From NCBI RefSeq assembly GCF_016026235.1, contig NZ_CP065613.1: a stretch of 64,000 nucleotides of DNA. One strand, 5' to 3'. The notes below the pieces were generated by a model that searched no databases, was not told the origin of the DNA, and was given only the letters and a program-made list of their open reading frames with translations. The DNA comes from Escherichia coli. GTDB lineage: Bacteria; Pseudomonadota; Gammaproteobacteria; Enterobacterales; Enterobacteriaceae. Made by a program: the position numbers and the translations under genes. Shown here in pieces: positions 29,577-29,946 of the stretch. Position 1 is the first letter of the stretch. Every line of letters begins with the position of its first letter.

Positions 29577-29595
29577 GATAATGAGAATTATTATC
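29577..29595. promoter_or_regulatory. Fur box (17/19 match to GATAATGATAATCATTATC) in the chuA / chuT divergent control region
   Basis: gataatgagaattattatc read directly; ~290 bp upstream of chuA start. Confidence 0.7.
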
Positions 29596-29927
29596 GATCA
29601 ATTTTTTATGATCAAGTTTTTTTTAACCGCCATTAACACAATAAACAGGGGGTTATGAAACCTATCCTGCGCCCAAGAAACCACCTTATTTTTATGATTA
29701 TTCTCCCATGACCTCATCACTAAACTTTGTCGTTAACAGTGATAATTTTCTCTTCTCTTTGCTCTGCAAGCCTCGATATCTCTGGGTTCTCAGCTTTTTC
29801 CCGCGCTGAAATTTAGTCGGTAACAAGAACGTTAGCTGACGAAGCATCTTGATAAAAATCAAAAATAAATACGCTTGTAACGCCTTGCGTATTGAATCGA
29901 CGGTTGTATTTCATATATAACTCAAAT

Positions 29928-29946
29928 GATAATCATGATCATTCTC
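29928..29946. promoter_or_regulatory. Fur box (16/19 match) plus adjacent half-site, immediately upstream of chuT start
   Basis: gataatcatgatcattctc followed by tgataatagttctc; lies inside the track ORF 5' extension, supporting the ATG at 29970. Confidence 0.7.

Follow-up and report, generated by a model that had tools for sequence, protein, structure and literature searches.

Two probable Fur operators in the divergent chuA-chuT region

The chu/shu heme-uptake locus is present in the 64,000-nucleotide (nt) stretch of Escherichia coli DNA analysed here (contig NZ_CP065613.1, assembly GCF_016026235.1; hereafter the window), and the region between its divergent genes chuA and chuT carries two sites that match the consensus sequence for the regulator Fur. 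We are highly confident that these sites are two Fur operators which control the divergent chuA and chuT promoters, and that chuT starts at the ATG at position 29970. Here, we computed sequence identity to characterised elements, coordinate mapping, rarity and conservation, and we relied on published experiments with orthologues for Fur binding, iron dependence, both transcription start sites (TSSs) and use of the ATG. We infer on this basis that both boxes would be bound by Fur in this genome, with iron- and fur-dependent repression. Fur control, start sites and RNA thermometers of shuA/chuA and shuT/chuT are already known from the literature and the chuT start is already in RefSeq; for operators, start sites and thermometers our analysis adds no biology beyond the published work. 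The added value is modest and consists of a phylogenetic footprint that independently finds both operators, a single-nucleotide polymorphism (SNP) in the Shine-Dalgarno (SD) and thermometer region of chuT, and a view on the origin of the N-terminal extension of ChuT.

The sites were scored against the 19-bp E. coli Fur box GATAATGATAATCATTATC, the classical consensus, which has also been interpreted as hexamer arrays or 7-1-7 repeats. Box 1 (gataatgagaattattatc, 29577-29595) has two mismatches to this sequence and box 2 (gataatcatgatcattctc, 29928-29946) has three. On the minus strand box 1 reads GATAATGAGAATTATTATC (17/19) and would be the operator of chuA(-chuS), located at about -17 to +2 of the chuA TSS; box 2, GATAATCATGATCATTCTC on the plus strand (16/19), would be the chuT operator at +1 to +19. 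An earlier note on this DNA had reported both sites, and we reproduced their positions and their scores; the observation is thus confirmed, and the interpretation of the two sites as Fur operators of the divergent chuA and chuT is supported by the evidence below. A best-match scan of the window returned single positions at 17, 16 and 15 of 19. At box 2 there is also an overlapping register on the plus strand (29922-29940, 15/19), shifted 6 bp upstream, as expected for Fur hexamer arrays. The two boxes resemble the classical Fur box in their match, and box 2 also in this 6-bp offset, but box 2 differs from it in lying downstream of the TSS (+1 to +19) and not over the -35 and -10 elements.

The chuT promoter and box 2 correspond to characterised elements of shuT

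The closest characterised system is shuT of Shigella dysenteriae, whose TSS, determined by rapid amplification of 5' cDNA ends (5'-RACE), precedes the start codon by 42 nt (Wei, Kouse & Murphy 2017, PMC5458455). In that work the Fur site is 19 nt long, has three mismatches and occupies +1 to +19, a location downstream of the TSS that the authors themselves noted as unusual, and Fur bound it preferentially in an electrophoretic mobility shift assay (EMSA). The promoter alone, fused up to -1, showed activity and lacked iron regulation, the 42-nt untranslated region (UTR) alone was sufficient for Fur- and iron-dependent regulation, and deletion of the first 5 nt of the Fur site abolished regulation (PMC5458455).

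These coordinates were carried over to the window by the exact sequence of the published supplementary oligonucleotides, and not by analogy. The 62-nt shuT promoter fragment, which ends at -1, equals positions 29866-29927 with no mismatches, so that +1 of chuT is G29928 on the plus strand. Since the shuT promoter starts 26 nt into this insert (PMC5458455), i.e., at 29892, the chuT -35 element is TTGAAT (29892-29897), and the -10 element lies within TATATAAC (29914-29921); the promoter thus spans 29892-29921 of the plus strand, inside the published active fragment. The oligonucleotide comprising the shuT UTR and ATG matches 29928-29972 (plus strand) except at 29957, a position that lies outside the Fur site, and this segment of 42 nt plus ATG is the equivalent of the shuT RNA thermometer. 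Box 2 is base-for-base identical to the published 19-nt Fur site. Altogether, chuT shares with shuT the 62-nt promoter (100%), the Fur site (100%), a 5' UTR of the same length, the ATG and residues 49-304 (100%), and it differs by the leader base at 29957, where shuT has G and the window has T, and by one synonymous change at 29987.

Box 1 covers the chuA start site

For chuA, the reference is the TSS determined in enterohemorrhagic E. coli (EHEC) Sakai by differential RNA sequencing (dRNA-seq), which lies at 4,391,862 and gives a 291-nt 5' UTR (Sy et al. 2022, PMC9002310). Since the Sakai coding sequence starts at 4,391,571 and there are no indels within the chuA leader between the window and O157, chuA +1 falls at about 29578 on the minus strand, with an uncertainty of about 2 nt. 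A consensus scan predicts a sigma-70 promoter on the same strand, with a -35 element TTGATC (29615-29610), a 17-nt spacer and a -10 element AATAAT (29592-29587); these hexamers are a prediction consistent with the mapped TSS. Box 1 covers both the chuA -10 element and +1, which is the classic geometry of occlusion. The operator shows no material difference from those of EHEC and uropathogenic E. coli (UPEC), as the window, O157 and UPEC do not differ in box 1, in the promoter hexamers or around the TSS; the middle of the leader varies by allele group, as already reported for EHEC versus UPEC.

Our literature search turned up no footprint of box 1 itself. In UPEC CFT073 the direct Fur regulon includes chuAS and chuTWXYU (Banerjee et al. 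2020, PMC7157518), and the interpretation of both sites given in the earlier note holds up: box 2 is the published EMSA site, box 1 overlaps the promoter of the Fur-repressed chuA, and both operons are direct Fur targets. The 291-nt leader of chuA (29288-29578, minus strand) carries the known post-transcriptional controls. shuA/chuA is Fur-repressed, and the controls described for the EHEC and UPEC chuA leader are a FourU thermometer, CyaR, RyhB, Esr41 and Rho (PMC3660397, PMC9002310). The shuA/chuA FourU RNA thermometer (Rfam RF02597) is found at 29285-29316 on the minus strand with 60.1 bits against a gathering threshold of 58 (E = 9.5e-9). Other Rfam matches in the region were rejected as chance, being far below threshold (Hammerhead_HH9, 20.8 bits against a gathering threshold of 52; snoR25; RUF4; mir-743).

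These data suggest the following model. Two sigma-70 promoters, separated by about 350 bp and each with its own Fur operator, would drive the divergent transcription of chuA-chuS and chuT-W-X-Y. When iron is present, Fe(2+)-Fur on box 1 would cover the chuA -10 element and +1 and block RNA polymerase, and Fur on box 2, together with the 29922-29940 register, would block initiation or early elongation at chuT. When iron is scarce, both promoters would fire, and translation of each mRNA would be further gated by the RNA thermometer in its leader. Translation of chuT from ATG 29970 would then yield a 304-amino-acid (aa) precursor with a mature domain from about residue 49.

Translation of chuT probably starts at ATG 29970

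The chuT coding sequence from ATG 29970 (29970-30884, plus strand) encodes 304 aa. ChuT belongs to the family of heme-binding periplasmic proteins (PF01497), and its residues 49-304 are 100% identical to chain A of the ShuT crystal structure 2R7A (E = 4e-163). The ATG works as an initiation codon, as the shuT UTR and ATG were fused to a gfp gene devoid of its own start codon in the constructs pF-UTR and pT-UTR, and green fluorescent protein was made in S. dysenteriae (PMC5458455); the thermometer acts on that very site. The RefSeq records (Prokaryotic Genome Annotation Pipeline) of the nearest genome, O157, the UPEC allele and Sakai also have the chuT/shuT start at the position equivalent to 29970, and a start at 29892 appears in none of them.

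Several points weigh against our reading. The evidence on regulation comes from other strains, and that this particular genome behaves like the characterised orthologues is something we infer. The mapped chuA TSS base is T, which is unusual and is the source of the 2-nt uncertainty, and it lies 9 nt from the predicted -10 element, so that the hexamer assignment is approximate. With respect to the chuT start, residue 49 is the first of crystallised mature ShuT, so that the pre-sequence would be unusually long (48 aa) and contain two hydrophobic stretches, and in five other genera the start of the orthologues lies about 30 codons downstream. Moreover, ATG 29970 is essentially without SD pairing in the window (predicted free energy +0.6 kcal/mol, compared with -2.4 in Shigella and O157 and -5.1 in UPEC); the pairing is lost because of the T at 29957.

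The one caveat that follows is that a downstream start of ChuT, e.g., at GTG 30030 or TTG 30069, is formally possible for this allele, since the orthologues start about 30 codons later. The boxes would then be as described, and 29970-30029 would be leader or a short overlapping upstream reading frame. The orthologues from Citrobacter, Kluyvera, Raoultella, Klebsiella and Dryocola (78-85% identity) have 274-279 aa, and their N-terminus, M(M)KKL, aligns to residues 30-34 of the window ChuT (KRKKL), so that the about 30 codons at 29970-30059 (plus strand) form an extension that these orthologues lack. The KRKK followed by LFTAVLALSWAFSVTA already resembles a complete signal peptide, and a 271-aa E. 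coli annotation exists among GenBank records (P0006). The extension is present in Escherichia/Shigella and in L009, a more distant relative from a metagenome which has the same divergent chuA/chuT layout; differences between the window and L009 within it are distributed as 9/8/12 over the three codon positions (hand count), with no clear excess at the third.

However, we consider a downstream start improbable. The window has CGA (30060-30062) in place of the ancestral ATG, the downstream candidates are also without an SD (predicted free energies from -1.5 to +0.3 kcal/mol), and a start at TTG 30069 would give a signal peptide without a charged n-region. L009 has CTA at the position homologous to ATG 29970, but it keeps an in-frame ATG one codon upstream, and its frame is open across a 33-nt in-frame insertion in the extension. 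Together with the gfp fusions and the RefSeq annotation, this argues for initiation at 29970. At chuT codon 28, where the window has GCA (30051-30053), the UPEC allele carries a further in-frame ATG. No usable ShuT signal-peptide or N-terminal sequencing data were found in our literature search.

Far less credible still is initiation at TTG 29892, as in the mechanically longest open reading frame (ORF) of chuT (29892-30884, plus strand, 330 aa), which would place box 2 inside coding sequence. Such an ORF does exist, as the frame is open from 29856, and box 2 does lie within its 5' part, as had been pointed out before. Nevertheless, the published shuT 5'-RACE puts the TSS downstream of this codon. 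Since the mRNA begins at G29928, TTG 29892 is not transcribed from the chuT promoter and cannot be a start codon; it constitutes the first three bases of the -35 hexamer in an experimentally active promoter fragment and has no SD. Primer F3, which corresponds to 29892-29912, yielded no product from shuT cDNA (PMC5458455), and in L009 the further upstream extension is closed by an in-frame TGA inside box 2. The earlier proposal that the true start is ATG 29970 is thus borne out by the published TSS and by RefSeq. The annotation should accordingly place the chuT start at 29970 (304 aa) instead of the TTG 29892 of the longest ORF, and treat 29892-29969 as non-coding DNA made up of promoter, operator and leader.

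Both boxes are rare in the window and conserved beyond their surroundings

Boxes 1 and 2 are the only sites with at most three mismatches in the 64-kb window (four hits when strands are counted separately), while dinucleotide-preserving shuffles (n = 100) contained 0.04 such sites on average and at most 1. We then aligned the window with O157, the UPEC allele and L009, and compared the nearest genome as well. The boxes and the promoter hexamers next to them do not differ among the window, the nearest genome, O157 and UPEC, the UPEC allele being about 9% divergent from the window in this region. L009 is more distant: the receptor shares 90% identity with ChuA and the T protein 85% with ChuT, and the intergenic DNA matches that of the window at only 53%. 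Against this background box 1 is conserved at 19/19 positions and box 2 at 17/19; all four promoter hexamers are retained, the two -35 elements and the -10 element of chuA at 6/6. Of the stretches unchanged in all four sequences, the longest two are 29576-29598 (23 nt), which contains box 1, and 29925-29944 (20 nt), which contains most of box 2. When L009 was scanned alone, exactly these two Fur sites were recovered, box 2 being best in the 6-bp-shifted register. Conservation of the Fur boxes thus exceeds the background of orthologous intergenic DNA. The notion that the matches arose by chance in promoter DNA and lack operator function can draw on the AT-richness of the region and on the weak matches (12-13/19) scattered through it, but with so few sites expected, such conservation, the EMSA and deletion data for box 2 (PMC5458455) and both operons being direct Fur targets in vivo (PMC7157518), we regard it as hardly tenable.

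A half-site flanking box 2 had also been proposed. The hexamer in question, GATAAT, does exist at 29952-29957, but it was rejected as a third Fur site, as a full site there would score only 12-13/19 and the hexamer is not conserved in L009 (3/6). It coincides with the SD region of chuT, and constraint on it as RNA is more likely.

The chuT leader carries a rare substitution in the Shine-Dalgarno sequence

The single leader mismatch to shuT, at 29957 (+30 of the chuT 5' UTR), is a T in the window and a G in S. dysenteriae, O157, UPEC and L009. It corresponds to "G32" of the published RNase T1 probing of shuT and changes the SD from AAGAG to AATAG. G32 is one of the two SD guanines of shuT that become accessible at 37 °C (PMC5458455). 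The substitution also breaks the C17-G30 pair, which is central in the inhibitory hairpin of shuT. At 25 °C the reference leader is predicted to form a hairpin of -9.0 kcal/mol with the SD paired, and the window leader a different stem of -5.9 kcal/mol, close to the -6.6 kcal/mol of the published destabilised mutant (all predicted values). Thus, as judged from these folding models, ChuT may be poorly translated or no longer thermoregulated in this genome.

The exact 60-mer of the window around 29957 was found in 1 of 2161 chuT-bearing complete E. coli genomes, FDAARGOS_943, in which shuT is annotated as frameshifted and hutW (chuW) is interrupted by an internal stop. Such an impairment of ChuT through T29957 could be an early step in the decay of heme uptake in this lineage. 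FDAARGOS_943 is also the nearest genome in our comparison (NZ_CP065615.1, 2272-3902; 99.9% identical); in the window chuT and chuW are intact.

A possible origin of the divergent chuT operon

In Citrobacter, Kluyvera and Raoultella, the corresponding hmuT/hemT-type genes encode an orthologous mature protein and are followed by chuW and chuX homologues, as in the window. They differ in that the T gene lies on the same strand, 2 nt after a gene for a TonB-dependent receptor of 710-717 aa, which is about 25% identical to ChuA (loci L005-L008, about 1-2330). There the T gene is internal to an operon, without a promoter of its own, a Fur box or the N-terminal extension. Among the loci compared, the divergent chuA/chuT layout with a Fur-controlled chuT promoter was found only in E. 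coli/Shigella and L009. It would seem that the Fur-controlled chuT promoter, the 42-nt thermometer leader and the extension of about 30 codons arose together, when the T gene changed from an internal, translationally coupled gene into the first gene of a divergent operon, and that in this rearrangement a new start was recruited upstream while the ancestral ATG disappeared. That this common origin and the impairment of ChuT or its thermoregulation by T29957 should both hold is a tentative proposal, which we regard as rather doubtful. The possibility that the extension and the DNA upstream of chuT are a remnant of the 3' end of the receptor gene found before the T gene in those other genera was rejected, as local alignment gave scores of 14-17 against a shuffled mean of about 16 and a maximum of 24.

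Neighbouring genes and other conserved segments

Downstream of box 1 on the minus strand lie chuA (27305-29287), which encodes a TonB-dependent heme receptor of 660 aa, and chuS (26228-27256); chuT is followed by chuW, chuX and chuY.

Within the chuA leader, the window, O157, UPEC and L009 share an unchanged 13-mer of the chuA strand, ATGGATAACAAAA (29536-29548, about +31 to +43), in a surrounding leader that has about 58% identity to L009. In each of the four sequences this 13-mer begins an ORF of 36-53 aa, with conservation limited to MDNK..AF. A reading of this upstream ORF as coding finds no support, since only its first codons are conserved, its length varies over that range and there is no SD; nor is the 13-mer the CyaR site. 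On the plus strand, TTATCCATA resembles a DnaA box (8/9).

On the side of the chuT promoter, upstream of it, the spacer 29715-29927 is nearly invariant among E. coli allele groups, with a handful of substitutions in about 210 nt, and the adjoining 29660-29715 is variable among E. coli alleles. In L009 the spacer has largely diverged, except for CATCTTGATA(A/G)AAATCAAAAA at about 29846-29866. In the untranscribed spacer between the two promoters, a small plus-strand ORF (MKPILRPRNHLIFMIILP, 29656-29712) follows a GGGGG motif. It was rejected as a conserved gene, because its length is allele-dependent and the segment is absent from L009; the GGGGG motif and the ATG of this ORF are invariant among the E. 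coli alleles.
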